From Bacteroidota bacterium (GTDB lineage Bacteria > Bacteroidota > Bacteroidia > Bacteroidales > VadinHA17), in the NCBI GenBank assembly GCA_022703405.1, contig JAKLDT010000001.1:1523-65522 (forward strand): 64,000 bases of DNA. Direction: 5' to 3'. Both the position numbers and the translations under genes were made by a program. Shown here one piece after another: positions 1 through 30,787 of this stretch (position 1 is the first letter of the stretch; each line of letters starts with the position of its first letter). Below the pieces are notes generated by a model. It saw nothing but the letters and a program-made list of their open reading frames with translations, was not told where the DNA came from and made no database searches.

Positions 1-3000
1 AGCGATTCTTTCTGGAAAAATATATTCATATCCATTCTGCTGATCATGATATTGTTGAAGATATTCATTTGAGATTTGAGCGGTTATAAATTGCTTTTCA
101 TCCAATGTTGCAGTTATATTCAGAGTAGAAAGGCTAAGACTAATCAATTGACGGACTGTTTGTTCGAAATAGGGATCATTACGAAGTACTCCGCTGTTGA
201 GAAGAACCTTATCATCTATTACTGATTTTATAGAGTTTAAAGTATCACATATCTCAGTTTCACGCTTGGAAATTAAACCGCGTAATACTACTCGCTTATG
301 CACTCGGGCTAACTTTTCATCATTATTGTACACCTGCTTCAATTTAGCGTTCCGACGGTTTATTTCCCGGATTTTTTCCATTATGCCATCCATATATTTT
401 ATGCGGTCTTTAGCCTCTTGTGCAGTGGATGGTTCAATATTTTTATCCTTAAAGTATTCTCGAAACATTTTTGCTAAGGATATGAATTCCTCATCTGTTT
501 GATCAAAGTTCAAGTTGAATTCCCTCCAGGTACGCTGCCAGCATTCAGTATAATCATCACTTAACATCCGTAATTCTTCCTCTTTAACTTTTACAAATGA
601 GAAAGTAATTGTAGCCATTGCTTCATTGATAAGACCATTTATAGTATCCTGATTTTGCATTGAATTTTTAAGGTTCACTGTATCAAGCCTATGAGAAACC
701 TCACTATATAGCTCATTGACCTTAGAAATCGCAAATTTTGAAAATTGGTCTTTCAATTCCTGATCACCAAATGTCCGTACGACATTAGCCAGACTCTTAG
801 CCTGCTCAAGTGATTTCTTAATAGTCAGAAGGGTTTCCCGATCATTAATTTCATTAATCTGTTGAGAGAATTCCTCAGCATTGGTGCAACTATAGCCAAA
901 GAGGACTTCCTTAATATCCTTCATTTGTTCTATAATTTCATCGTTACTTTCAAATAAACCGGAGTAAGTTTCTATATTCTCCTCTCCTACCTCTTTTTTT
1001 AATTCTCTTAAATAGGCCTCATTTGTAGCGTCAAAAGCATCTTTAATATCTGCAAAATCAACAATGTAACCATATTTGAAATTATTGAAGGGCCTATTAA
1101 CTCGGGTGAGAGCTTGTAAAAGATTGTGATCTTTGATTTTTCGACCAAGATAGAGCTTCTTCAATCTTGGAGAATCAAAGCCTGTCAACAACATAATATT
1201 GACAATCAATATGTCAACTGATGCTTTCTTCTTGAAATCTTCAATATATCCTTTCCTGGTCTCCTTATCATCTTCATCATGCAAAATGAGTGCGCATTTC
1301 AGATGATGTTGATTCTGTTTATCATTGAAAATTTTGAACATAGTCCTTGCCTGCAGATTTGAGTCACAGACTATCATACCAGCAATTGAATTATCCCCAA
1401 AGTAAATCCGGCTTCTAATCAGATCTGCTGTAATATAGTCAAGTAAGGCTTCCACATAACGAGGATCAGCTATTATACGATCTTTCTTGATGTCACTACG
1501 CTTCAGCTGAACCTCCTCAAGTACCTTTTCAATCTCCATGCGATAATTGCTTTCTATATCCTCTCGCATTAACTTTAAGGTGTACCCGTCAGCAATTGAT
1601 TGGTTGTAGTAATATGTGTCAATGTAATCGCCAAATATCTTGCAGGAGTTCTTTTCATCCCCAATGAGAGGTGTCCCAGTCAAGGCAATTTTTATGGCAT
1701 TCGGATCAGAGTCAAACAAGTTAGCGAGGAAGCAACCATCCGGTTTATATCCTCTATGTGCTTCGTCAAGAAAATAAATGCGCTGAATGTTAATTGCGTA
1801 TTCATCCATTCTTACTTTGTGCTGATCTTCCTTAAACTTTTGGATGTTCACCACAGTTATTTCTGATTTTCCCTGCTGATTAAAAATGGAAGTTTGAGAA
1901 CGAAATTGCTCCATCAATTCAATTCTGTCGTTAACAGTATTTACTGTCAACCCTCGTTCTTCAAATTCTATCTTAGCCTGAGTAAGTAAGTCAATCCTAT
2001 CAACAATAAAATAGAACTTGGGAACAATAGGATTAGGAAGAGAGGCATAATAATCAGTCAAATACTTGACATTATAAAAGGCGAGAGCAGTTTTTCCACT
2101 TCCCTGAGTATGCCATATTATGCCAGATCTTACACCTTCTGACAACTTCCTTTTTAGTGCCAGCGTTGCGAACATTTGCTGATAACGCATTATATGCTTT
2201 TGAAGTACCTGAATATCGACCCCATCAATTTCTGTTTTTGTATCGACATAAGCAATCGCATAACGAATAATAAAAAGGAATCTCTCCTTACTAAACAGTG
2301 ACGTTATTAACCGATTTGTAGGAGTATTTACATTCTTGTTTGTCTGGTATTCGGGAGTATGTTTTATGACTGTTGCATTATTATCTGTTAGAATATAATA
2401 CTCAGTGGGGTCTTCTAATGTTAGATAGTGATAATCCTTGTAAAAATCAGCTTTGCTTTCCTCATACTTAGCTACTTTTTCTCTGAAACAATTAAATATA
2501 GCTTTGTCTTTAGCATTGGTACAATAGAAGGCCCCTTGAATCGGAACAATTGATTCGTTGTCATACTCCATATTGTTTGAAAAAAGCAGAACCTGTGACA
2601 GGTTTAGAAATCGACGAAATTTTCGATTTTTAAACCTCACATTGATTCTATCTCTTTCTGCCAGGATCCCTTCTTTATTATTAGGTTTCTTAACCTCTAT
2701 GAATGCAAGTGGCAAACCATTAATATACAGTGATATGTCAGGACGGAACTCATCTTCTCCATTTTTACAGGTAAATTCAGTTGTACATACAAAATCATTA
2801 TTTTCTACATTCTCAAAGTCAATGAGCTTAATGCCTGAATTCGTTGATAATATGCTGTAAAATTCTCTTCCTAAATCATCATTATCCAGAATAATCTTGA
2901 GTTTATCAATGAACTGATCTATTTCAATTGCTCTGAGTGAAGGGTTGAATTGATGAAGTTTGCTCTTCAGAACACTGATATTTATATTCGTGTCTGTATC

Positions 3001-3102
3001 ACAAATATCCTTAAGCTCTTTTTCTGATACATACTTATAACCCAATCGGCATAAATGAGTTAATGCTGGAATTTTGACACGTGAGTTCTCGTTAAAAGCC
3101 AT
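1..3102 (-). CDS. hsdR: Type I restriction enzyme R subunit (HsdR); the C-terminal end runs off the left window edge
   Basis: Minus-strand frame is open from the ATG at 3102 to position 1 (1034 codons, no stop, so it is absent from the supplied track). My translation shows PD-(D/E)xK nuclease motif PDISLYINGLPLAFIEVKK, Walker A TQGSGKT, DEAH box, LTGTP, LLTGFDSP and QALTRVNR, in the order typical of HsdR helicase-nucleases. Confidence 0.9.
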   Translation of the reverse strand, partial: MAFNENSRVKIPALTHLCRLGYKYVSEKELKDICDTDTNINISVLKSKLHQFNPSLRAIEIDQFIDKLKIILDNDDLGREFYSILSTNSGIKLIDFENVENNDFVCTTEFTCKNGEDEFRPDISLYINGLPLAFIEVKKPNNKEGILAERDRINVRFKNRKFRRFLNLSQVLLFSNNMEYDNESIVPIQGAFYCTNAKDKAIFNCFREKVAKYEESKADFYKDYHYLTLEDPTEYYILTDNNATVIKHTPEYQTNKNVNTPTNRLITSLFSKERFLFIIRYAIAYVDTKTEIDGVDIQVLQKHIMRYQQMFATLALKRKLSEGVRSGIIWHTQGSGKTALAFYNVKYLTDYYASLPNPIVPKFYFIVDRIDLLTQAKIEFEERGLTVNTVNDRIELMEQFRSQTSIFNQQGKSEITVVNIQKFKEDQHKVRMDEYAINIQRIYFLDEAHRGYKPDGCFLANLFDSDPNAIKIALTGTPLIGDEKNSCKIFGDYIDTYYYNQSIADGYTLKLMREDIESNYRMEIEKVLEEVQLKRSDIKKDRIIADPRYVEALLDYITADLIRSRIYFGDNSIAGMIVCDSNLQARTMFKIFNDKQNQHHLKCALILHDEDDKETRKGYIEDFKKKASVDILIVNIMLLTGFDSPRLKKLYLGRKIKDHNLLQALTRVNRPFNNFKYGYIVDFADIKDAFDATNEAYLRELKKEVGEENIETYSGLFESNDEIIEQMKDIKEVLFGYSCTNAEEFSQQINEINDRETLLTIKKSLEQAKSLANVVRTFGDQELKDQFSKFAISKVNELYSEVSHRLDTVNLKNSMQNQDTINGLINEAMATITFSFVKVKEEELRMLSDDYTECWQRTWREFNLNFDQTDEEFISLAKMFREYFKDKNIEPSTAQEAKDRIKYMDGIMEKIREINRRNAKLKQVYNNDEKLARVHKRVVLRGLISKRETEICDTLNSIKSVIDDKVLLNSGVLRNDPYFEQTVRQLISLSLSTLNITATLDEKQFITAQISNEYLQQYHDQQNGYEYIFPERIA

Positions 3103-3145
3103 ATAAATCCGATTGTATAAAAGAAGTATGAAATTAATTAAAATA

Positions 3146-3179
3146 ATAAGATATTTAAATTCATCAGACAATATCTTAT
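3146..3179. promoter_or_regulatory. Perfect 10-bp inverted repeat in the hsdR upstream region (possible operator)
   Basis: ATAAGATATT (3146-3155) and AATATCTTAT (3170-3179) are exact reverse complements with a 14-bp spacer. They lie 44-77 nt upstream of the hsdR ATG. Confidence 0.3.
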
Positions 3180-3276
3180 GTTAAAGTATTTACATTGAAA
3201 CAATATTGAAATGAATGAACTGAAATCAGTTAAATCGAATATAGTTCCTAAAACAATCGCTTGACAGGACCGGCAG

Positions 3277-3307
3277 AAAAAAAAGAGAGCACAAAACTCT
3301 CTTTTTT
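3277..3307 (-). terminator. Intrinsic terminator after the 152-aa ORF, isolating hsdR transcriptionally
   Basis: AAAAAAGAGAG / CTCTCTTTTTT stem with a 7-nt loop, directly after the stop at 3312. T-runs are present on both strands. Confidence 0.7.
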
Positions 3308-3844: not shown

Positions 3845-4315
3845 TTACAAAAGCCCGTTATCAGCAAAGCTGTAATAGTCATTTTCTGGTGAAAGAATGA
3901 GATGATCCAGTAACTGAATATCCATTATATTGCCAGCCTCTTTGAGCTTCTGAGTAATCCTTGAATCAGATTCACTCGGATTGAGATTGCCTGAGGGATG
4001 GTTATGACATACAATCAATCCTGATGCATTGCTTTTAAGGGCTGCCTGAAGAATGATCCTGACATCAGTTACAGTTCCTGATATCCCACCTTTTGAGATA
4101 GGTAAAAGACCAAGGACAGCATTAGAACGATTCATTAACAGTATCTTGAACTCTTCATAGTATTCAAGTGTACTGTCATTCCAGGACTCTCTGAAGATGT
4201 CATTGGCATCCTTTGAACAGGTTATCTTTTTACGCTGCGATGGAGGAACATTTGATTTGTAAGACAATACTACCTCGGCAACATTAAACATTGATAGTTG
4301 AATAGCGTTTTTCAT
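3845..4315 (-). CDS. radC: RadC-like JAB/MPN domain protein
   Basis: VCHNHPSGNLNPSESD matches the HxHPSG...SxxD JAB metalloprotease signature of RadC-family proteins. A terminator-like hairpin GCCATC-CGGA-GATGGC follows at about 3822-3837. Confidence 0.9.
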   Translation of the reverse strand: MKNAIQLSMFNVAEVVLSYKSNVPPSQRKKITCSKDANDIFRESWNDSTLEYYEEFKILLMNRSNAVLGLLPISKGGISGTVTDVRIILQAALKSNASGLIVCHNHPSGNLNPSESDSRITQKLKEAGNIMDIQLLDHLILSPENDYYSFADNGLL

Positions 4316-4927
4316 GATGAAACAGTTTTAAGTTTCAAAACATGAATAATTCGATGCCTCCGGATTATATATTGGGGCCCCAACTGGAACCTCAAAACAT
4401 ACCCCCCCGGTCGTTTTCTCTGCCCTACCCATTAAAGTCGTACACATTAGGTCATGGAGGCGGACCCGATAACACTGCAGACTATAGTAGCATTTAAGAA
4501 ATAAAATATGACACGGATCAACTTTAGAATTAACAAAATAACACCCCCCCGAAAACATCTATCTTCGAAATGCCATTCTTCAATTTTCCATTGCTGGACT
4601 CAATCGTTCTTTACAATTTCATCAGAAACAAGCCTGGGTTGAGCGTTTGAACGAAACCCTAAACTGAGTCTTGGAGTGCTGGAATATGAGATCTGCTATG
4701 ATTGCTTGACAGGCCAGTTAGCGGCAATTTGAGCTACTGCTTATTTCAATGTGTGTGCGTGGAAGGAAGAAGTTTCAGGCTTAGCTGCGCGGCTACTTTA
4801 TATAAAAATAGTTATAGGGCCAAAGGCCGTAGCACGAAGTGACTATAACTCTTTTTATGTAAACGGTAGACTTTGGATTTTGAGGGCTGAAGATAAGGTC
4901 TGAAACTTCTTCGCGCGAGGGCAGAAC
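4316..4927 (-). other. ~610-nt non-coding, GC-enriched block with nested hairpins (candidate structured RNA or ssDNA element)
   Basis: The only ORF is a Cys-rich 76-aa frame (4328-4558). There is a 13-bp perfect inverted repeat (4766-4778 / 4900-4912). It encloses a 14-bp stem (4804-4817 / 4843-4856, 1 mismatch), which encloses GGCC-AAA-GGCC (4818-4828). A C7/G7-containing ~17-nt motif occurs twice (4391-4410, 4533-4552). Confidence 0.35.
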
Positions 4928-5377
4928 TTACTCACAATTATTGGTTGAACTATTTACTTTGTCATCTGGGATATGAAGCACCTTTATGTTATTCAAAAGG
5001 ATTTTTCCAGTTCTCTCCTGGACTGTATTTATGATCTTCCTATGATCAAAATTTTTACTCCATTTAAATGAATAAAGTGGATTAACATAGTAGATATTGT
5101 TCTGTGCTCTCAGCATAAGTTCTGCCCTATTTAGCTCAGTTAATGCATTTCTGATTGTTTTTTCAGAATAATTCAGATGCAGGTTATGTTCACAATACTG
5201 AATATAAAAACTCATTCCATGATCACTAAAGTAGACCAGATTATCTTCTGGCCTCATAAAGGTCACAAAAACATCTAATAGATTTCTGGCTGAGGAGGAG
5301 AGTTTTGTTGTTTGCTGAAGATGGTTCGACAGATGTACTGTAGGCCACATTAATTCATTCTGAGATGAGATATTCAT
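4928..5377 (-). CDS. Hypothetical protein (possible winged-helix DNA-binding protein)
   Basis: 149-aa ORF in the unidirectional island gene string. No diagnostic motif recognised. Confidence 0.5.
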   Translation of the reverse strand: MNISSQNELMWPTVHLSNHLQQTTKLSSSARNLLDVFVTFMRPEDNLVYFSDHGMSFYIQYCEHNLHLNYSEKTIRNALTELNRAELMLRAQNNIYYVNPLYSFKWSKNFDHRKIINTVQERTGKILLNNIKVLHIPDDKVNSSTNNCE

Positions 5378-5400
5378 ATGATTACATTTCTATTTAGTTC

Positions 5401-5712
5401 CTACTTCTCTGACTTATTTGAATCAGGTAACTTTTCTAAAATACCTTTATAAATCCTCATTGTCACTCCTAACTCTTTTAATATCTCTTTTTCCCCCATT
5501 CCGGGAATAGTCTCTACAATAAAAAATACTTCCCCATTACCAATAGCTACGAATTTCTCTTCTGACTTTTTCTTCTGCTTTTTGGTGTTTAGGTTTGCTG
5601 GCTTTAAATGTTCCCTGATTTCAGGAGAATTCAGATTCTCTTTCTTTTTCATTACTTTTTTACTTTTAGATTTTATAATTATTATTTCTGTGCCGCAGAT
5701 ACTTACTCTCAT
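5401..5712 (-). CDS. Hypothetical small basic protein
   Basis: 103-aa ORF. The true start is more likely the internal MKKKEN (about 5652). It has a Lys-rich N-terminus and a possible HTH near the C-terminus (EKEILKELGVTMRIYKGIL). Confidence 0.45.
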   Translation of the reverse strand: MRVSICGTEIIIIKSKSKKVMKKKENLNSPEIREHLKPANLNTKKQKKKSEEKFVAIGNGEVFFIVETIPGMGEKEILKELGVTMRIYKGILEKLPDSNKSEK

Positions 5713-5730
5713 CTGAATATTATATATCTA

Positions 5731-6507
5731 CTAAAGCCAATCATCTTTTATACTTTTTGCATCAATTGTTTCATTTTCTATAAATTGATCATACTTCTCC
5801 GGCATTTCTACTTTTTCCCTGGAAATGGTAAAAACTTTTTCATCCTGCATATTTGGATCATCATCAATTTCAGATTGAAATTCTTCTTCTAACAGATATT
5901 GTGACTTTGAAATTTCACTTATTACTTTCCCTAATCTTTCTCTTGTTTCTGGATCTATTCCTTGACCTGTATCCATCATCTGGATTTGATCTTGCTCAGA
6001 ATCTTCATTCTTATTAGCAGATAATGGATTTAGCTCAGATATTTCTTTATTGTTATTATTTGTTGTATCCTTTATATCCTCAATATCCTTTATATCATTT
6101 CCTTTATATATAGCACCATTCTTAAATGCGTTTGGATTGCTGTCGCAATCGATTAAAAGATCATTTGATTTTTTACTCCATCTTTTTATTGCTGATTGTC
6201 TTGCAGATTCGGTTTTCTTCTTTCGAACCTCGAGTCTTCTTTCAATACTTTGTGAGCTAAAAAAGTCATTCTTGATAACGAATAGATCAAAATCATTTAC
6301 TATACTTTTAACTATGTCATCATCCGTCCGCAAATCAAATGCAATGTCATCATAGTCCGTTCGCATTGCGTTTGCATTATTATATAAATCCTCAACAATG
6401 GACCAGAATATTCCATATCCAGTCATTCCATACTTCTTAAGAAGTCTCTTTATCTTTTCATCAGTTCTTGCATTGTAGTCATGCGAAAAATAATACGTCT
6501 CTTTCAT
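5731..6507 (-). CDS. DUF4373-like (Lin1244/Lin1753-type, replisome-organiser-like) protein
   Basis: From the internal start MKETYYFSHDYNARTDEKIKRLLKKYGMTGYGIFWSIVEDLY, which resembles the N-terminal DUF4373 signature (YFxHDxNAxxDxK...GYGxYW). The track ORF extends to 6585, but that N-terminal extension looks non-native. Confidence 0.6.
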   Translation of the reverse strand: MKETYYFSHDYNARTDEKIKRLLKKYGMTGYGIFWSIVEDLYNNANAMRTDYDDIAFDLRTDDDIVKSIVNDFDLFVIKNDFFSSQSIERRLEVRKKKTESARQSAIKRWSKKSNDLLIDCDSNPNAFKNGAIYKGNDIKDIEDIKDTTNNNNKEISELNPLSANKNEDSEQDQIQMMDTGQGIDPETRERLGKVISEISKSQYLLEEEFQSEIDDDPNMQDEKVFTISREKVEMPEKYDQFIENETIDAKSIKDDWL

Positions 6508-6592
6508 ATTCCTGGCTTTTAAAGGCATCCATCCGGGATTATCAGGAACCTGACTTGCGGTCAGGCGTCCCGGATGGTGCCTCATATTGTTA

Positions 6593-6874
6593 TTATTCTG
6601 TCCTTAATCTTTTATATTTGAGAGTCGTTGCGTCCTGAATGGCAGCTTTAATATCAGATTCGAGATACAACATTCTTGTGCCAATTTTACTTCCCTTTAT
6701 TATGCCTTTTTTAGTATAGGTATTTAAAGTTGGCATACTGACCTTAAGAATTGTACATACCTCTTCTCGGGAGAGATACTTTAGATCAATATCCTCTTTC
6801 TTGAGGTTAAGGTCGATCAGCCGGTTTTCAATGCTGGTCAGCCTTAAGTTAATTTCTTCAAATGGATTTGACAT
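6593..6874 (-). CDS. Excisionase/MerR-type helix-turn-helix DNA-binding protein
   Basis: LSREEVCTILKVSMPTLNTYTKKGIIKGSKIGTRMLY is typical of HTH_17/excisionase-family proteins. It lies two genes from the integrase. Confidence 0.7.
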   Translation of the reverse strand: MSNPFEEINLRLTSIENRLIDLNLKKEDIDLKYLSREEVCTILKVSMPTLNTYTKKGIIKGSKIGTRMLYLESDIKAAIQDATTLKYKRLRTE

Positions 6875-6943
6875 ATTGCAACAGGTTTAAATTCTGGTGC
6901 AATTTATTATCAGGGAAATCCGGTTACTGGTTATTTCTGGTAA

Positions 6944-7651
6944 CTATTTTTTAAATATATCATTCTCAATATTGAATTTTAGCTTCATTAGATCTTTTTC
7001 AGCACGGTCTTTTGCATCCCCGGAGAGTTCTTTTATGACTTTCTCAAATAGTTTTATTTTATTCTTATTCTTTAATTCTGAACTTTCAGCACCTATTCTA
7101 TCAATCAGATTAACATACCCCAGATAAATTATATATAGTTTGCCTTTACCTTTTTTAATAATCTCATTTCTATAAATAGACAATAAAGCAAGTTCAGCAT
7201 TTGTCTTTTGTCCTTTAAGGTAATTATTTAACCACAATAGATATCTACAATAGACTAAAGCTAAACTATAGAAAAGTCTTCTATCTGTTAAATAATCTGG
7301 CACAAAATCATTTAGCTTATAAAACCAATCATCCCAGTCATTTTCTTCTAATTCATCAATATTATTATTGTTTACAATAAAATGAATCCAGAACTTTCTA
7401 ATCAACCATATCTGCATACTGTTGAACTCTGGAACTGAATAATCTTCAAGCGGTTCGTCATCGTGTGAAAGTATTGGTAAGGGCAACTTATCCTCATCAA
7501 AAAGTAATGAATAGCCCTTGATTTCCCTTGCTAAGAGTTCTTTCTTTCCTCTACTATTTTGATACCTGACGTTAAAATCATCCTTTAATTTCTGAAGTCT
7601 TATGGCTTCATCTTTAGTCAAAATAATATCTTCAATGCTCATATCATACAA
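6944..7651 (-). CDS. Hypothetical protein, overlaps the integrase stop by 8 nt
   Basis: 235-aa ORF. Its start overlaps the end of the integrase gene (7644-7651), which suggests co-transcription. No recognisable motif. Confidence 0.55.
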   Translation of the reverse strand: MYDMSIEDIILTKDEAIRLQKLKDDFNVRYQNSRGKKELLAREIKGYSLLFDEDKLPLPILSHDDEPLEDYSVPEFNSMQIWLIRKFWIHFIVNNNNIDELEENDWDDWFYKLNDFVPDYLTDRRLFYSLALVYCRYLLWLNNYLKGQKTNAELALLSIYRNEIIKKGKGKLYIIYLGYVNLIDRIGAESSELKNKNKIKLFEKVIKELSGDAKDRAEKDLMKLKFNIENDIFKK

Positions 7652-8987
7652 CTTTTAATTTTGTTTTGAAATATGGATGATTAGCAAGTTTTACGGCAGT
7701 CTCTTCTTTACTTATCCGAACATATTTCAAGAATTCTTTTGGTGTCCGGTGTCCACTGATCTTCATAATGTCTACTATTGGAATTCCAGCGAGATACATA
7801 AGGGTGACTCCAGTGCGTCTTGCACAATGAGTTGATATCAAATCACATTTCTTTACATTTAATTTTTTAATCATCCCACCTTTGTTCTTTTCGGTATGAA
7901 TCAACTCAGTAATCCCTGCTTTGGCTCCGATCTTTTTAATTGCTTTATTAACCTTTTGTTCGAATGACTTGGGTAAGTTGTAATCATATCTTTGAAGAAT
8001 TACTTCTAATTCTGGTCGGATTGGGATGATACATTTTTCACCAGTCTTCTTTTGAATCAATTCAATGTACTTTGTTCCACTAATTTCTTTAATGTTTGAT
8101 TTATTCAGTTTTGAGTAATCAGAATATCGTTGAGCGGTATAGCAGCCTGCAAGGAATACATCACGTACTTCCTGGTAGTGCTTATTATCACTTAGATCCA
8201 ACTCATAAAGGTTCTTCAACTCTGACTCAGTTAAATAAATGTGTTCCACTTCCTCAGACAGGGTTTTAAAGGCCTTTCTTTCTATTTCCATATTGCTGTG
8301 CAGACCTTCTTCCCTGGCAGATCTCATTATGGTTTTAAAACTCTTTATGTGTTTTCCAATATAGTTGGATCCACATCCACGTCCATAAAAGAATTCAACA
8401 AATTCATTGTAGATATCAATTGATATATCATTCCAATTCAGTGGCTTATAAGGCCTTTGGGGATATACTTTGGCTCCCTTACGTGGTTTAATGCCTTCAT
8501 TCTCTATGCCCTGGAATGTATTGAAGGTCAACATAAACCCCCTTAGAACCCGTAGTGAGCCATAACTATATTTCTTTTTAGTGTTCCCGGAATTAGCAAG
8601 GCGTTTTCCACTTGTTGCCTCATCCACAAACCTTTTAATGTATTCGTTCAATGTTTCTATTGAAGCTGGCTCCCTATAGTAGAAATCATCAATTACACCT
8701 TTTAACCATTCAGCCGTTGGTGTGGTAGTCAGTTTAAAAGATTCTCTGAGGATAGCATCTTTAAGCTGTGAAAACTTGTCCTGTATATCTTTAGCCTGGT
8801 CCTGAGTTATTTCCTCAGTAAACAGGATATTGGGCTTAAGTCTTTGAGCCTTTTCATTCCAATATGATGGATAAAGTCTATAAGGAGTTAGGAGGCGGAT
8901 TTTGATGTCAGTACCATCCTGGAAGCAGACATAAACTGAAGCCAGCTTATTCACCTTTGATCGGACATAGAATCTTATGGTTGCCAT
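7644..8987 (-). CDS. Tyrosine site-specific integrase (Bacteroidetes type with N-terminal arm-binding domain)
   Basis: Catalytic-region motifs TAQRYSD, HCARRTGVT, SGHRTPKEFLKYV (R...HxxR...H...Y). The N-terminus MATIRFYVRSKVNKLASVYV is typical of the arm DNA-binding domain of this integrase class. Confidence 0.9.
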   Translation of the reverse strand: MATIRFYVRSKVNKLASVYVCFQDGTDIKIRLLTPYRLYPSYWNEKAQRLKPNILFTEEITQDQAKDIQDKFSQLKDAILRESFKLTTTPTAEWLKGVIDDFYYREPASIETLNEYIKRFVDEATSGKRLANSGNTKKKYSYGSLRVLRGFMLTFNTFQGIENEGIKPRKGAKVYPQRPYKPLNWNDISIDIYNEFVEFFYGRGCGSNYIGKHIKSFKTIMRSAREEGLHSNMEIERKAFKTLSEEVEHIYLTESELKNLYELDLSDNKHYQEVRDVFLAGCYTAQRYSDYSKLNKSNIKEISGTKYIELIQKKTGEKCIIPIRPELEVILQRYDYNLPKSFEQKVNKAIKKIGAKAGITELIHTEKNKGGMIKKLNVKKCDLISTHCARRTGVTLMYLAGIPIVDIMKISGHRTPKEFLKYVRISKEETAVKLANHPYFKTKLKVV

Positions 8988-9018
8988 AGGCTATAATAGT
9001 TTTCACTAAAGATACAAC

Positions 9019-9041
9019 TTGTGTCTATAGTTGTGTCTATA
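9019..9041. repeat. Tandem TTGTGTCTATA x2 (candidate integrase arm-type sites)
   Basis: TTGTGTCTATA at 9019-9029 and 9031-9041. This is 30-50 bp beyond the integrase start and about 130 bp from direct repeat copy A. Confidence 0.4.
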
Positions 9042-9164
9042 ATTGTTTAATATATTTTTCTTTGATTTAACTTCCTTTTATGAAAACAAGGTTCATAAAA
9101 CAGAATACCAGACCATTATGGACTTATAATTAATTTCGGAAATTAAAGCGAATTAAATATTTAG

Positions 9165-9385
9165 CGTCCCGTCCGCACCGCGAATAAAAACATGAAAGCC
9201 ATCTGTCAGGATGGCTTTAGTGTTTTAAACCGTCGGCGTTGATCAGTAAAATGGCGCGCTGGCGTCATTTCATGTTTTTATTCGCAGGGTAACCAGTGGA
9301 GGAAAGGGTCCGGCGCAGCCATTTCCGGCTCCACCTTTATGATAGAAACTTTAAAGCCTCATTAAATGGGGCTTTTCGCTTTTTA
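9165..9385 (+). ncRNA. Candidate structured non-coding element at the island junction (identity unknown)
   Basis: Contains an 18-bp perfect inverted repeat (9180-9197 / 9268-9285), which encloses the hairpin AAAGCCATC-TGTCAG-GATGGCTTT (9195-9218). A bulged hairpin GTGGA-GGAAA...TTTCC-GGC-TCCAC lies at 9296-9334. A terminator-like AAAGCC...GGCTTT plus T-run lies at 9353-9385. No ORF. Confidence 0.25.
9167..9191 (+). repeat. att-like direct repeat, copy A (TCCCGTCCGCACCGCGAATAAAAAC)
   Basis: 24/25 identical to 11407-11431. The GC-rich half CCCGT-CCGCACC-G has the layout of a tRNA T-stem 3' strand, a 7-nt acceptor strand and a discriminator base. Confidence 0.6.
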
Positions 9386-9394
9386 TTAGGAATG

Positions 9395-9417
9395 ATTTGT
9401 CCGACATTTGTCCGACA
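9395..9417. repeat. Tandem ATTTGTCCGAC x2
   Basis: Perfect 11-bp tandem duplication. It resembles the TTGTnnnnA pattern of the 9019-9041 repeats, so these may be arm-type or accessory-protein sites. Confidence 0.35.
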
Positions 9418-9668
9418 TTGCCAAAATCACAAAAGCTTTTTCGATTTAATTTATAGAGATACTTCATACTTTTGCCTTGGTTTCTACTTTGTCATATTCT
9501 GAATTATTGCATTGATATTCAATCAAAGACAAGTGTAAATACTTACTTTAACAAATTAATCGAAACTCAAAAATGGAAAGAAAGGTAAAAAAATACACTC
9601 TATTCATACTCATTTTTTTATTACATTCTAAGGAATGAGTATTATATCACAAGAACAAAGCGTCTCTC

Positions 9669-9830
9669 TGGAAATTATTTTCCAATCGTATCCTCATACT
9701 GGAAAATAATTGATCATTTGGTGCAAACAATGCATTATATTGGAAATTATTTTCTAATTACAGCCCCTTGGTGGAAAATATTATCTAATTTTGTGCTTTT
9801 ACAAGATTATTATGGAAAATATTTTACCTA
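9669..9830 (+). promoter_or_regulatory. Phased array of five 18-bp repeats (TGGAAAwTATTwTCyAAT) ending on the fic start codon
   Basis: Copies start at 9669, 9700, 9741, 9772 and 9813, with spacings of 31, 41, 31 and 41 bp. R1 and R3 are 17/18 identical. R2, R4 and R5 share TGGAAAATA. R5 includes the ATG at 9812. Confidence 0.5.
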
Positions 9831-11293
9831 TACATCTTCAGGAGATAATTTTCAGTTCATCAGATCAAAAAATCTCAAAGCAGATTTCAAAACTTGTGAA
9901 GACTGGGAAGATCAGGAAAATTGCTCAACGAATATATTCTTCGAACTTTATTGACCAGCCAGATGCAATAATTCGGAGAAATTTATTCATTGTGCTTGGC
10001 AGGCTTCATCCAGGCGCAATCCTAAGTCATCGTTCAGCTTTTGAATATGAACCAACCAATGAAGGCCATATTTTCTTAACATATTCATATACAAAAAAGG
10101 TAAATCTGGCCGGGGTCATTCTAAGGTTTCTTGAGGGACATAAAGCCTTACCAGGCGATAATCAAATCTCTGGTGGATTATATGCTTCCCAGAGAGCAAG
10201 AGCATTTTTAGAAAATTTGCAACTTTCAAAAAATGTAAGTGGAAGTTCAAAATGTCTGCCAACAGCTACAATAGAAAGCAAATTAGAACAGATTATCAGG
10301 GTAAATGGAGAGGAAGAACTAAATAAAATAAGAGACAGAGCAAGGGAGATTGCTCCTGAACTCAATATGGAAAGAGAATTTGAAAGATTAAATAAGATAA
10401 TTAGTGCTCTTTTAACTACACAGACACCAAAGATATTATCATCTCCTATTGCAGTTGCCAGGGCATTTGGATTTCCTTATGATCCAGCCAGAATAAAACT
10501 TTTTGAGGACCTCTTCAGAGCATTAAAGACAAGTGAGTTCAAAAGCAGACCAGATAAAAACACAACTTCCGAATCCTTCAGGAATTTTGCATTCTTTGAA
10601 AGTTATTTTTCAAATTATATTGAAGGAACTGTGTTTGAAGTAGATGAGGCGAAGAACATTGTAGACTCAAATAAACCGTTACCAGCCAGAAATGAAGATA
10701 GCCATGATGTGCTGGGAACGTACAGGTTAGTCTCGAATAAGGCTGAAATGTCAGTAACACCGGCTAAAGCTGAAGATATGTTGCACATTATTACATATCG
10801 GCATAGAATTTTACTGGAAGCCAGACCAGAAAAGAATCCTGGTGTGCTTAAGGATAGAAACAATTTTGCAGGTTCGACATCATTTGTGGATTTTAATCTG
10901 GTTCGTGGCACATTATTACAATCATTTAACTTTTTTCAAGCACTTGATCACCCCTTTGCTAAGGCTTCTTTCATGATGTTCATTTTAAGTGAAGTTCATC
11001 CATTCCTTGATGGAAATGGTCGTATTGCCAGAATTATGATGAATGCAGAATTAGTAAAAGACGGGCAATCAAAGATTATTATACCAACTGTCTATCGTGA
11101 TGATTATTTTGTTACACTTAGAAAACTGACAAGACAAGGCGATCCGAAACCTTATATAGCAATGTTACAACGAGTACATGAATTTAGTGAAAACATTTAT
11201 GGAGACAATTATAAAGTTATGTTGGACTACATCAACCAATGTAATGCATTCTACGAACACACTGAAGCCAGATTAAAGGTTGCTAAAAGGTAG
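9812..11293 (+). CDS. Fic-domain protein (probable AMPylase) with a long N-terminal extension
   Basis: Canonical Fic motif HPFLDGNGRIARIM. An upstream SNYIEG matches the (S/T)xxxE(G/N) inhibitory-helix motif. The ATG at 9812 (MENILPI) is preferred over the TTG at 9791 used by the track. Confidence 0.9.
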   Translation: MENILPIHLQEIIFSSSDQKISKQISKLVKTGKIRKIAQRIYSSNFIDQPDAIIRRNLFIVLGRLHPGAILSHRSAFEYEPTNEGHIFLTYSYTKKVNLAGVILRFLEGHKALPGDNQISGGLYASQRARAFLENLQLSKNVSGSSKCLPTATIESKLEQIIRVNGEEELNKIRDRAREIAPELNMEREFERLNKIISALLTTQTPKILSSPIAVARAFGFPYDPARIKLFEDLFRALKTSEFKSRPDKNTTSESFRNFAFFESYFSNYIEGTVFEVDEAKNIVDSNKPLPARNEDSHDVLGTYRLVSNKAEMSVTPAKAEDMLHIITYRHRILLEARPEKNPGVLKDRNNFAGSTSFVDFNLVRGTLLQSFNFFQALDHPFAKASFMMFILSEVHPFLDGNGRIARIMMNAELVKDGQSKIIIPTVYRDDYFVTLRKLTRQGDPKPYIAMLQRVHEFSENIYGDNYKVMLDYINQCNAFYEHTEARLKVAKR

Positions 11294-11406
11294 GAGCATC
11301 TTTATTGAAAATGTAAGGCTAATCAACCTGGGCATCAATTCATATCTCCTTTTCTCTACAAGTTTCTTGTCTTGAATTATGAATAATTAATACAAATGCC
11401 AGCAGT

Positions 11407-11431
11407 TCCCGTCCGCACCGCGAACAAAAAC
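11407..11431 (+). repeat. att-like direct repeat, copy B (TCCCGTCCGCACCGCGAACAAAAAC)
   Basis: Second copy. It coincides with the transition from AT-rich accessory DNA to core genes (GH29 promoter region). Confidence 0.6.
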
Positions 11432-11499
11432 CACTCAGAAGGAAAAAAATAATCATTTTTGCTTTTTTAGTCCTACCTTTATTAAAATACTCATCCGCT

Positions 11500-12564
11500 A
11501 TGCAAAAATTCAAAATAAAACCTCTGCAGGTTTTCTGTTGCATACTGATTTTAATAACAGCGTGCAGATCAGAGAAAAAAAACATTGAATATACTCCTGC
11601 AACAGAAAAGACAGAAGCTTTAGCCTCCTGGGAAGACCTCCGCTTCGGGGCCTTCGTCCATTTCAACGACAATACCTTCTTTGGAAAGGAGATATGCAAA
11701 AACACCGATCCTGCCTTGTTTAATCCTGCTGATCTGAACTTCGATGATATGATGAAAACCTTTAATGAGGCTGGAATCCGTTATGCAGTTCTTACAACCC
11801 GTCACACTTCCGGTTTCTGCCTGTGGGACAGCAAGGTAAGCTCATTCGATGTTGCATCCGGTCCATTCAGAAAAGATGTTGTGAAACTTTTCACAGAAGC
11901 ATGCAGAAAATACAACATCAAGCCTTGCTTTTACTATTGCTTATGGGGCAAAAAAGACTGGAACCCGGCAGACTGGAACCCTGTTATCAGGGAGGAACTA
12001 AGAAATACTTCCCCGAAGGAAATTATTAAAACCCAGCTGAGTGAACTAGCTGATAATTATGGTGATATATGCGAGTTTTGGCTCGACATGTATTGCTGGT
12101 GCGACACAACGCTTTCGACTCAGGAAATTTATGATCTTATTAAAAGCAAAAACAAAAATACAATCGTTCATTTCAATCAGCATGTGCAGGACGGTTCAGA
12201 AATAAAATACTTCCCCACCGATATTCTTAACGGAGAAGAACGGCTTCCTCCTTCTTCAGGACATATTTCTGAAAGAACTGTTGGCGGAAAAACATACTAT
12301 CTGCCTTTTGAATACGAGATCACTTCGCAGAGCTGTGATTCAATTTCTCTTGGAAACGGACTCATGCCGGGTTCAGTATGGTTCACCTACCCGGGAAGTC
12401 ATTTCTATCCGGGCGACAGCCTTTACAGCTATATAAGGCAGAGCTTTGAAAGAGGTGGCAGAAATATCCTCCTGTCAACTGCGCCTGACAAAACAGGTTC
12501 GTACAGGAATGCTGACAGGGATAGCCTGATAAAACTCGGAAAGATGCTTTACAGAGACAACTAA
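11500..12564 (+). CDS. GH29-like alpha-L-fucosidase, exported
   Basis: N-terminal signal/lipoprotein-like sequence (LILITACRSE). RFGAFVHFN and TTRHTSGFCLWDS resemble GH29 catalytic-domain motifs. Confidence 0.6.
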   Translation: MQKFKIKPLQVFCCILILITACRSEKKNIEYTPATEKTEALASWEDLRFGAFVHFNDNTFFGKEICKNTDPALFNPADLNFDDMMKTFNEAGIRYAVLTTRHTSGFCLWDSKVSSFDVASGPFRKDVVKLFTEACRKYNIKPCFYYCLWGKKDWNPADWNPVIREELRNTSPKEIIKTQLSELADNYGDICEFWLDMYCWCDTTLSTQEIYDLIKSKNKNTIVHFNQHVQDGSEIKYFPTDILNGEERLPPSSGHISERTVGGKTYYLPFEYEITSQSCDSISLGNGLMPGSVWFTYPGSHFYPGDSLYSYIRQSFERGGRNILLSTAPDKTGSYRNADRDSLIKLGKMLYRDN

Positions 12565-29997: not shown

Positions 29998-30687
29998 TTA
30001 TTTTGTTTCCTTTTCCAGATCCTTCATCATCTCCTTGAAATCGGAATTCTTAAAGCCTTCCATAAACTGATTGGCCTTCCTGTAAGTCACAATACTGCTT
30101 ATCATCATAAGAACAAACAGGGCAATAAGTACATAACTGACAATCTTTACAGTGTCAGCTTTTGCCTTTAGTGTCTCAATAAGGGCATTATAGAGGAGCC
30201 AGAGCATGAACAGGTTAACAAGCAGGGAAATGAACACACCAAGGTAAATATTGATACCTCCTGCAAATCCGAGCAGGGCTGATACAGGCATTACAACCAT
30301 CAGAGCTGCTGAAACCCTTACATTGGTTTCAAAATCAGTGCTTCCCTTGCAGATGGCAGATATAACAAGAATTATTACTGCGCCAATGAACAATCCTATC
30401 ACAGCTGCAACAATATAATAGACAAAGGCCATTACACCAACAGCTCCTCCCAGCATTCCTCCGGACACAGTATTAAGATTCAGAAGGCTCCAGATAAATG
30501 CAAAGACCCCGGCAACAGCTCCGTAGATCACTGCTTTTATAAGTGGTTCTGCCAATCCTCCGGTTGTTTTCATGCCGGCGAAATATCCTTTCGGATTCAT
30601 CAGGGTCTCTTTTGATTCGTTAATTAATGCATTGAAATCAAATGATCCATTGCCCTGAGGGGTGGTTTCTGTTGCTTCGTTGCTCAT
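29998..30687 (-). CDS. Yip1-domain-like integral membrane protein
   Basis: Soluble N-terminus followed by about 5 hydrophobic helices. The family assignment is from memory only. Confidence 0.45.
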   Translation of the reverse strand: MSNEATETTPQGNGSFDFNALINESKETLMNPKGYFAGMKTTGGLAEPLIKAVIYGAVAGVFAFIWSLLNLNTVSGGMLGGAVGVMAFVYYIVAAVIGLFIGAVIILVISAICKGSTDFETNVRVSAALMVVMPVSALLGFAGGINIYLGVFISLLVNLFMLWLLYNALIETLKAKADTVKIVSYVLIALFVLMMISSIVTYRKANQFMEGFKNSDFKEMMKDLEKETK

Positions 30688-30787
30688 AATAAATCGATTA
30701 AAGGGTTAGTATTAACAAAGTACAAAATCAGTACCTAAGTTAGAAATATTTTCCAACAATTAATAAAAACCTTCTTAAAAGAGCCTG

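Follow-up and report, generated by a model that had tools for sequence, protein, structure and literature searches.

A conserved, helically phased three-site array over the promoter and start codon of AbiEi-like::Fic fusion genes in Bacteroidota, with stand-alone copies in phages

What is the role of a repeat array that runs into the start codon of a toxin gene? This question is raised by a locus in the 64,000-nucleotide stretch of DNA of a Bacteroidota bacterium analysed here (contig JAKLDT010000001.1; the whole stretch is referred to as the window), in which five similar 18-bp repeats precede and enter a fic gene located at 9812..11293 on the plus strand and encoding a 493-amino-acid AbiEi-like::Fic fusion protein. 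The original prediction, which was made from the sequence alone, had interpreted the repeats as a phased array with a layout suited to cooperative autorepression. In the window, the array certainly overlaps the promoter and the start of the Fic-fusion gene. From the comparison with homologous loci and with further copies of the array we conclude that it is a functional, phased module predicted to bind protein, and from its position we strongly infer that it represses the Fic-fusion gene.

The five sites match the motif TGGAAAWTAWTW on the plus strand and start at positions 9669, 9700, 9741, 9772 and 9813, i.e. the start-to-start distances are 31, 41, 31 and 41 bp, exactly as had been predicted. 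Over the whole window the motif is found 9 times, compared to 0.33 expected matches (about 27-fold excess), a number that was reached in 0 of 100 shuffled sequences, and 6 of the 9 matches fall inside 9669-9824. The first site, R1 (TGGAAATTATTTTCCAAT, 9669..9686), is a near-palindrome and is followed 31 bp further on by R2 (TGGAAAATAATTGATCAT, 9700..9717). R3 (TGGAAATTATTTTCTAAT, 9741..9758) is located at -71 from the ATG, a position at which the homologous loci mostly have a site as well, and R4 (TGGAAAATATTATCTAAT, 9772..9789) at -40 lies in the core promoter, where its right half enters the -7 box. As anticipated, the last site, R5 (TGGAAAATATTTTACCTA, 9813..9830), lies on the fic ATG; its first base is the T of the ATG at 9812 and it covers the start codon and codons 1-6. 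All of these sites are located on the plus strand and carry a conserved 5' flank, TTATAn. The two alternating subtypes that had been noticed are also apparent, with R1 and R3 conforming to TGGAAATT and R2, R4 and R5 to TGGAAAAT. Since 31 and 41 bp correspond to 3 and 4 helical turns, all sites are expected on the same face of the DNA.

The recurrent unit of the array consists of three sites (31 + 41 bp), and the window contains two such units, which share the site at 9741, i.e. R1 opens a distal unit, and R3 both closes this unit and opens the proximal one. This arrangement modifies the idea of a duplicated 72-bp unit: a local duplication in the lineage of the window is plausible, but it does not represent the design of the family, which is the three-site unit. 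The two 72-bp units of the window are identical at 47 of 72 positions. The local duplication is considered plausible because the spacers match at 17 of 36 positions (about 11 expected) and because a degenerate copy of the -7 box (TCATTTGG, 9714..9721, plus strand) is found exactly 72 bp 5' of the functional-looking box, apparently as a trace of this event. Overlapping units as in the window are rare among the homologous loci, in which a 41-bp gap followed by a 31-bp gap occurs 4 times, compared to 85 cases of 31 followed by 41. A lone extra copy of the motif (TTGGAAAATATTTCTAAC, 30744-30755, minus strand) was observed in an intergenic region about 57 nt 5' of the ATG of the gene at 29998-30687, and it stands without phased partners.

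The comparison with homologous loci, which had been suggested as a check, comprised 80 loci on one-genome-per-species contigs with 63-89% protein identity, covering the orders Bacteroidales, Chitinophagales, Flavobacteriales and Cytophagales; gap statistics were taken over 76 of these loci and column conservation over 60 non-redundant upstream regions. In the great majority of the 80 loci, TGGAAA is present at -71, -40 and +1. The predicted helical phasing is conserved and non-random, since of 265 distances from one site to the next 100 measure exactly 31 bp and 82 exactly 41 bp, and the array ends with a 31-bp gap followed by a 41-bp gap in 67 of the 76 loci. Conservation in the upstream regions is limited to three ttATAnTGGAAAATAtT blocks and a TAnnTTTG box at -26 to -19, and positions 5' of -80 show background conservation. 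The internal dyad that had been noted in R1 and R3 is a family feature as well: the family consensus of the -71 site is a perfect 16-bp palindrome, TGGAAAATATTTTCCA, to which many of the -71 sites are identical. In about one fifth of the loci, a second three-site unit is found farther upstream. Divergent subfamilies, whose proteins start with MDLKEV or MSELIF, retain the phased array, partly as the variant TAGAAAAT, and their last site is located 15-18 nt 5' of the ATG. Because of this displacement, we regard the third site as a DNA element and not as a by-product of the MEN codons. One metagenome-assembled genome encodes two paralogous Fic fusions (L009 and L014, 84% and 75% identical to the window protein), each of which has its own array, that of L014 without a recognisable -71 site.

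The same data bear on the view that the repeats have no function and represent a tandem duplication of the 5' end of the gene in a state of decay. The spacer similarity retained between the 72-bp units of the window (17/36) would be in line with it. However, it is the sites and not the spacers that are kept at fixed positions across Bacteroidota orders and down to about 55% protein identity, and sites occur independently in at least 70 other contexts among the matches listed. Neither a loss of the repeats from homologous loci nor a random spacing, both of which had been named as refuting the prediction, was found, and the view of a decaying duplication, which the comparative data already refute, retains a negligible probability.

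No neighbouring gene is conserved across the 76 loci, in which the commonest neighbour family occurs 5 times, and therefore the conserved unit consists of the array and the Fic-fusion gene, which favours autoregulation. The partner toxin gene of AbiEi, AbiEii (DUF1814), was not found as a conserved neighbour in these 76 loci, and the downstream gene in the window encodes a fucosidase.

Which part of the encoded protein could contact the DNA? The ATG at 9812 was taken as the true start, rather than an upstream TTG of the mechanically called open reading frame (ORF), because all homologues begin with MEN or MEK. The family includes more than 6,000 proteins at 90% clustering, nearly all of them 493 amino acids long, and the N-terminal domain alone forms 951 clusters at 50%. 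Consistent with the proposal of an AbiEi-like N-terminal extension, seven PADLOC AbiEi models match residues 15-119 (9854..10168, plus strand; best E = 9.2e-6), residues 9-49 are hit by the NCBIfam model TAA_AbiEi (E = 0.008), and in an hhalign comparison the winged-helix segment of a DUF6088/AbiEi antitoxin pairs with residues 5-43 (E = 0.0013). Within this region, a putative recognition helix and wing (QKISKQISKLVKTGKIRKIAQRIYSS) is located at residues 19-44, and residues 18-45 are strongly basic, with 8 K/R compared to 1 D/E. Other architectures for the N-terminal domain were sought among mid-length representatives, which were without another Pfam domain and look like truncated genes.

The remainder of the protein is a Fic domain. 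Its active-site motif HPFLDGNGRIAR (10997..11032, plus strand, residues 396-407) satisfies HxFx(D/E)GNGRxxR, and the inhibitory-helix motif SNYIEG, of the (S/T)xxxE(G/N) type (10610..10627, plus strand, residues 267-272), indicates a class II, self-inhibited Fic protein; both motifs are invariant in 55 homologues. Pfam Fic matches with E = 8e-11, and a PDB profile search matched the Fic half to FICD (E = 1.6e-13), while the match to the PADLOC SoFic model (E = 8e-18) spans only profile positions 55-265 of 361. With the predicted structure, Foldseek returned Fic structures only (FICD, SoFic and others). We therefore read the protein as an AbiEi-like, putative DNA-binding module fused to a self-inhibited Fic toxin, with the DNA-binding half assigned from modest similarity only.

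How would such a protein act on the array? In Bacteroidota, the -7 promoter element has the consensus TAnnTTTG. The box TAATTTTG at 9786..9793 on the plus strand (-26 to -19) matches this element, and a box at this position is conserved in the Fic loci; transcription would start about 10-14 nt before the ATG. On this basis the site centres lie near -51, -20 and +21, a geometry that suits a repressor. Repression, cooperativity and the identity of the binder are likewise inferred. In the mechanism that we propose, each site would be an 18-20-bp element composed of the TTATAn flank and the near-palindrome TGGAAAATATTTTCCA, and three such sites, 31 and 41 bp apart on one DNA face, would act as one unit. 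In the proximal unit, the site at 9741 would lie 5' of the promoter, that at 9772 in the core promoter against the -7 box and that at 9813 over the transcript start and the start codon, and the second unit (9669/9700/9741), which shares the site at 9741, would raise occupancy. The N-terminal AbiEi-like winged helix would bind the sites, and the large Fic body would bridge sites 100-140 ångström apart; by analogy, the wide site spacing may fit a bulky Fic-mediated oligomer. Repression would keep the transcription of the intact, self-inhibited AMPylating Fic toxin low, as with AbiEi and CccR (see below). To this reading, namely a cooperative repressor operator of a single-gene toxin/defence module that is bound by the gene's own N-terminal domain, we assign an even chance of being correct.

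A metagenome scan for the three-site pattern identified at least 120 loci, 40 of which are followed by a Fic gene and 73 of which clearly are not, and viral contigs scanned for the exact three-site pattern contributed 66 loci in 23 independent groups, with a Fic fusion encoded at only 2 of the 66. Three contigs that seemed to carry many arrays (L326, L329, L339) were left out because they consist of low-complexity tandem repeats (ATGGAAAATGATGGAAAAT...), which match the pattern by construction and are unrelated to the element. After dereplication, at least 70 non-Fic arrays compare to at least 17 Fic arrays among the matches listed, and the three-site profile is common to both groups and extends to the TTATA flank, a stretch that the search pattern did not contain. 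The array is thus not private to the Fic gene. The layout expected for autorepression is therefore borne out in part: the array lies over the core promoter and the start codon and there is no other conserved neighbour, but at least 70 copies among the matches listed are without a Fic gene. At the corresponding position, Fic loci taken from genomes keep the -7 box, and non-Fic arrays do not; an exact box is equally rare in the arrays from the scan (2 of 17 Fic vs 6 of 70 non-Fic arrays, among the matches listed).

The non-Fic arrays occur once per locus, share no neighbour gene and fit tightly between the adjacent genes: site 1 directly adjoins the stop codon of the preceding gene in 8 cases, and 7 following genes, among them one for a DNA methyltransferase, have their start on site 3. 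In one phage lineage, the same cassette of array plus terminator is found between differing flanking genes. The phages with arrays have ordinary early or nucleotide-metabolism genes, and TAnnTTTG is four- to five-fold enriched at -40 to -11 of their ORF starts, which indicates that array-carrying phages use Bacteroidota-type promoters. Searches of GenBank phages by DNA and by protein returned no cultured relatives. In bacteria, orphan arrays sit in toxin-antitoxin and defence islands. At two loci, L277 (array 5382) and L122 (array 8397, viral contig), what follows the array is a Fic-family gene cut down to its first 8-14 codons, with the remnant MEKNNPIHLQAACL (MEKNNPIHLQ) followed by a stop in L277 and MENIFSIHKV... 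in L122. Judging from these remnant sequences, the Fic toxin gene can be lost while the array persists.

Several further observations concern the placement of individual arrays. In phages, the spaces between neighbouring tRNA genes can be taken up by arrays that lie on the opposite strand (L307 1088-1166, L315 355-433, L322 2971-3049), in L307 between tRNA-Thr(ggt) and tRNA-Thr(tgt). In one large group of related phages (L091, L092, L104, L118, L152 and relatives), the three-site pattern lies antisense in a coiled-coil-like ORF of 230-300 amino acids (...KIFQKEQEFEQQRKVFSTKTQEMENIFQEE...), and in another group (L126, L231 and L208) it forms part of the reading frame of a membrane protein, close to the C-terminal end (...IIVENIFQKP...VIVEN...). 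Orphan arrays directly border DUF6088/AbiEii operons in three cases; a link between the array and AbiE operons was rejected, since 13 homologous operons are without arrays and have their own inverted-repeat operator, i.e. the vicinity is a defence-island coincidence. In L298 (about 5896-5920, array-oriented), a perfect 18-bp palindrome, TTTTCCTATATAGGAAAA, stands between the orphan array and the operon and uses the same GGAAAA half-site in the opposite arrangement. We also rejected the array as a promoter, since a sigma-54 pattern (GG-N10-GC) fits few sites, sigma-70 spacing does not fit and TAnnTTTG is missing from most non-Fic arrays, and DnaA, NrdR and ARG boxes were rejected by eye because of consensus mismatches.

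Since the array is not private to the Fic gene and many orphan copies share an invariant motif, a separate, unlinked trans-acting factor remains a serious rival to binding by the Fic protein itself. In that case the array would be the platform of such a factor, with the Fic gene as one obligatory target; candidates would be a conserved Bacteroidota regulator, a nucleoid-type protein (e.g. Lrp/AsnC-like) or a phage-encoded regulator, and the Fic N-terminal domain would serve otherwise, e.g. in target or partner recognition. This is consistent with the common profile and the unselected flank of Fic and non-Fic arrays, with the occurrence in 23 independent viral groups as one array per locus without a shared neighbour gene, with the array-plus-terminator cassette being kept within a phage lineage while flanking genes change, with the Bacteroidota-type promoters of the phages and with the invariance of the motif across orders. 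The shape of the sites and their phasing by 3-4 turns also resemble, in geometry only, Lrp/FFRP sites and the three-box Ss-LrpB operator. However, no recurrent host gene apart from the Fic fusion lies behind the arrays, which is unlike a regulon, and no candidate regulator gene with its own array was found. In addition, the bacterial orphan arrays look solitary in defence islands, some of them being the clear Fic remnants described above, and the Fic protein has a credible DNA-binding module. We consider a separate trans-acting factor possible, though clearly less probable than binding by the Fic protein.

Several results weigh against binding by the Fic protein's own N-terminal domain. Besides the non-Fic arrays, the motif is invariant among family members down to about 52-55% N-terminal identity, while private toxin-antitoxin operators usually drift. 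Local hidden Markov model (HMM) searches detected no relative of the Fic N-terminal domain and no AbiEi-like winged helix-turn-helix (HTH) protein within several kb of the orphan arrays, and such a search for a stand-alone N-terminal domain returned full-length Fic fusions only, in the viral scan only the two Fic-carrying contigs. The resemblance to AbiEi is modest, with E values from 1e-5 to 1e-2, Pfam shows no match in the first 250 residues, with its AbiEi models remaining without a match, and AlphaFold2 predicts the N-terminus with low confidence (predicted local distance difference test score below 50 over residues 1-50 when the full-length protein is modelled, and 40 when the N-terminus is modelled by itself). 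Nevertheless, the Fic fusion alone accompanies the array repeatedly (40 of the 120 metagenome loci among the matches listed), and other gene families recur in at most 4 of the 23 viral-contig groups. We regard binding by the gene's own N-terminal domain as the best single hypothesis because the Fic fusion is this sole recurrent partner, has a credible DNA-binding module and can be set beside direct precedents.

The two distributions of the array, at Fic genes and in phages, could also be directly coupled. In such a scenario, the array would be a regulatory cassette of Bacteroidota phages that the AbiEi-like::Fic protein evolved to recognise, with the phage copies coupled to the host operator as a trigger or decoy. 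In uninfected cells, the host gene would be repressed by its own product via the cassette copies over its promoter. Upon infection, replicating phage cassette DNA would titrate the repressor-toxin off the promoter, perhaps with an altered oligomeric or active state, and this titration would switch on a Fic-mediated abortive response; conversely, the phage cassette might be a DNA decoy that soaks up the toxin. We regard this coupling as speculative and rather unlikely, below a trans-acting factor in probability.

Might the repeats instead act as RNA, i.e. as a type III-like RNA antitoxin or leader or as a translational operator, the copies in phages then being pseudo-antitoxin mimics? The third site overlaps the translation start, in some phage arrays site 2 is followed by a terminator hairpin, the arrays of phages more often than not point in the direction of the downstream gene (31 vs 17) and the window region folds better than shuffled sequences (z = -5.2), although this score is expected anyway from several copies of a palindromic, AT-rich site. 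A paralogous family provides a further point in favour. This second N-terminally extended Fic family is large, its proteins are about 516 amino acids long and start with MATPxEKLA, and every member examined (L352 with the gene at 3895-5445, minus strand, array-oriented; L385, L388, L389, L390, L391 and L393, with the gene starts at 701) has 4-9 tandem 24-bp direct repeats that end 10-45 nt before the ATG. The repeat sequence varies by locus and differs from the motif of the window, and since the members each have their own, locus-specific repeats, repeat arrays are characteristic of the family and go with the gene next to them, which is also an indirect argument for autoregulation in the window. 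A -7-type box is located just 5' of the first repeat in L352 and L388, which would place the near-identical repeats in the mRNA leader. The layout of the 516-amino-acid family resembles a type III toxin-antitoxin system or a roadblock operator, and near-identical tandem repeats of the ToxI-like kind are represented better by this family than by the array of the window.

In the 493-amino-acid family, however, nothing is conserved 5' of -80 that could serve as a promoter of the array, and sites 1 and 2 lie outside the Fic transcript because the conserved -7 box is located inside the array, between sites 2 and 3. Only about 18 nt per 31-41 nt are conserved, unlike in type III repeats, and a search of Rfam gave no relevant family match to the array. 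Moreover, about one third of the phage arrays, those in tRNA clusters among them, run antisense to the adjacent genes, and Fic is not an RNase, unlike the endoribonuclease toxin of type III (ToxI-like) systems. A function of the window's repeats as RNA is thus very unlikely.

The surroundings of the locus suggest yet another explanation. A low-GC island (30-36% GC compared to about 42% past 11500, composition determined over 5000-11500), which is probably an integrated mobile element, has the fic locus at its right edge. On the minus strand, a RadC-like gene (3845-4315), a gene with a Lin1244_N domain (5731-6585), an unannotated ORF of 235 amino acids (6944-7651) and a tyrosine integrase gene (7644-8987) are encoded. 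The repeats could be recombination or replication sites, i.e. integrase arm-type sites, cassette junctions or iterons. In favour of this, the integrase gene is encoded on the opposite strand about 680 bp before the array, within the island that also holds the RadC and Lin1244-like genes, and the phage arrays are found exactly at gene junctions (the 8 upstream-stop and 7 downstream-start cases) between differing gene pairs. However, of 77 Fic loci only about 4 are preceded by an integrase gene, the register of the array is fixed to the Fic promoter and the ATG whatever the context, and a two-ended mobile element was rejected, since no motif copies and no second end were found 3' of the gene. 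The tandem direct repeats between the integrase gene and the array, at 9019-9046 (TTGTGTCTATAA x2.3) and 9395-9419 (ATTTGTCCGAC x2.3), are better arm-site candidates for this integrase. As for the iteron-like function that had been put forward, it finds no support, since no replication gene is linked to the array, the loci are situated on large chromosomal contigs in varied contexts and each phage locus contains one array. Recombination or replication sites are accordingly about as improbable as a function as RNA.

In the interval between the integrase gene and the array, terminator-like hairpins were also observed (9195-9218, 9249-9270, 9353-9375), and the tandem repeats and hairpins together are candidate arm or att-region features of the integrase. 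Positions 1-3300 of the window are nearly without ORFs of at least 110 amino acids; three ORFs of 88-101 amino acids start there, all with TTG, and such an ORF-poor stretch is unusual for a bacterial genome.

What would follow from these results? The control and phage triggering of single-gene Fic defence (SoFic) and of AbiE-type systems are largely unknown. Autorepressed toxins and Fic-HTH fusions are already known, and our literature searches returned no description of an AbiEi-like::Fic protein with a conserved 31+41-bp three-site operator that also occurs stand-alone in phages of the same phylum; a motif-based literature search returned nothing useful. The family represents a compact, testable case that combines a fused antitoxin-like module, an invariant phased operator over the promoter and the same operator in same-phylum phages. 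Binding of the protein to its own and to the phage copies would tie autoregulation directly to the sensing of phages or to a phage counter-defence. With a separate factor as the binder, the array would be a previously undescribed regulatory module common to Bacteroidota phages and defence islands. If the coupling described above is true, the trigger or counter-defence of this defence would be a specific, phage-borne DNA operator array. Whichever the binder, the three-site motif is a useful annotation marker for such loci.

Among the known systems, the type IV toxin-antitoxin pairs AbiEi/AbiEii (AbiE of Streptococcus agalactiae; Rv2827c/Rv2826c of Mycobacterium tuberculosis) are related to the window protein through the match of its N-terminus to AbiEi models. 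AbiEi is a winged HTH protein, which represses its own promoter by cooperative binding to spaced promoter sites of about 23 bp (PMC3985639; see also PMC7319586). In contrast to AbiE, there is no AbiEii nucleotidyltransferase partner here, the toxin-like part being a covalently fused Fic domain, and three or more direct repeats phased by 31/41 bp take the place of the pair of inverted 23-bp repeats. The DUF6088/AbiEii operons of Bacteroidota also have a different operator, TTGTAACAAAT...ATTTGTTACAA, and no TGGAAAAT arrays. This inverted repeat overlaps a TATATTTG box of the -7 type, about 20-70 bp before the DUF6088 start at 2501 (L372, L375, L377, L378, L384), and is probably the AbiEi autoregulation site of the DUF6088 family.

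Regulators of the Lrp/AsnC family have phased multi-site operators, e.g. the three boxes of Ss-LrpB or sites 1-3 and 4-6 of pap. They have in common with the array AT-rich palindromic sites of 13-16 bp with GG/CC-type ends, three per unit and spaced by whole turns in their own promoter. However, no Lrp/AsnC gene is linked to the array and the consensus differs, i.e. the likeness is geometric only. The promoter-early stem-loop (PeSL) cassettes are regulatory elements of T4-type phages, and the phage array, sometimes with a terminator hairpin, resembles them as a compact, conserved intergenic cassette between different ORFan genes; it differs in mostly having no host-type promoter box and in consisting of three phased repeats that look like protein sites.

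With respect to the Fic half, SoFic is a single-gene anti-phage defence that causes abortive infection by AMPylation (PMC12249575). The window protein resembles it by its match to the PADLOC SoFic model, but SoFic is without an AbiEi-like N-terminal region, and a small downstream antitoxin gene of the AS1 type is not conserved here. A parallel in terms of regulation is CccR of Yersinia pseudotuberculosis, in which a class II Fic toxin is fused to an HTH and acts as the repressor of its own promoter (PMC9755527). Its operator half-sites, AGATAATCAT-N26-ATGATAATCT, are widely separated, which is explained by a spacing of about 70 ångström that the Fic dimer imposes on the DNA-binding domains (PMC9755527). 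Both proteins unite a self-inhibited Fic domain and a DNA-binding domain, putative in our case, in one chain with an operator over their own promoter, whereas CccR has its HTH, which is not related to AbiEi, at the C-terminus, uses one inverted repeat as operator and is an effector of a type VI secretion system. We know of no orphan copies of the CccR operator in phages. Since its DNA-binding module is N-terminal and belongs to a different family, the window protein represents an analogue rather than a homologue of CccR.

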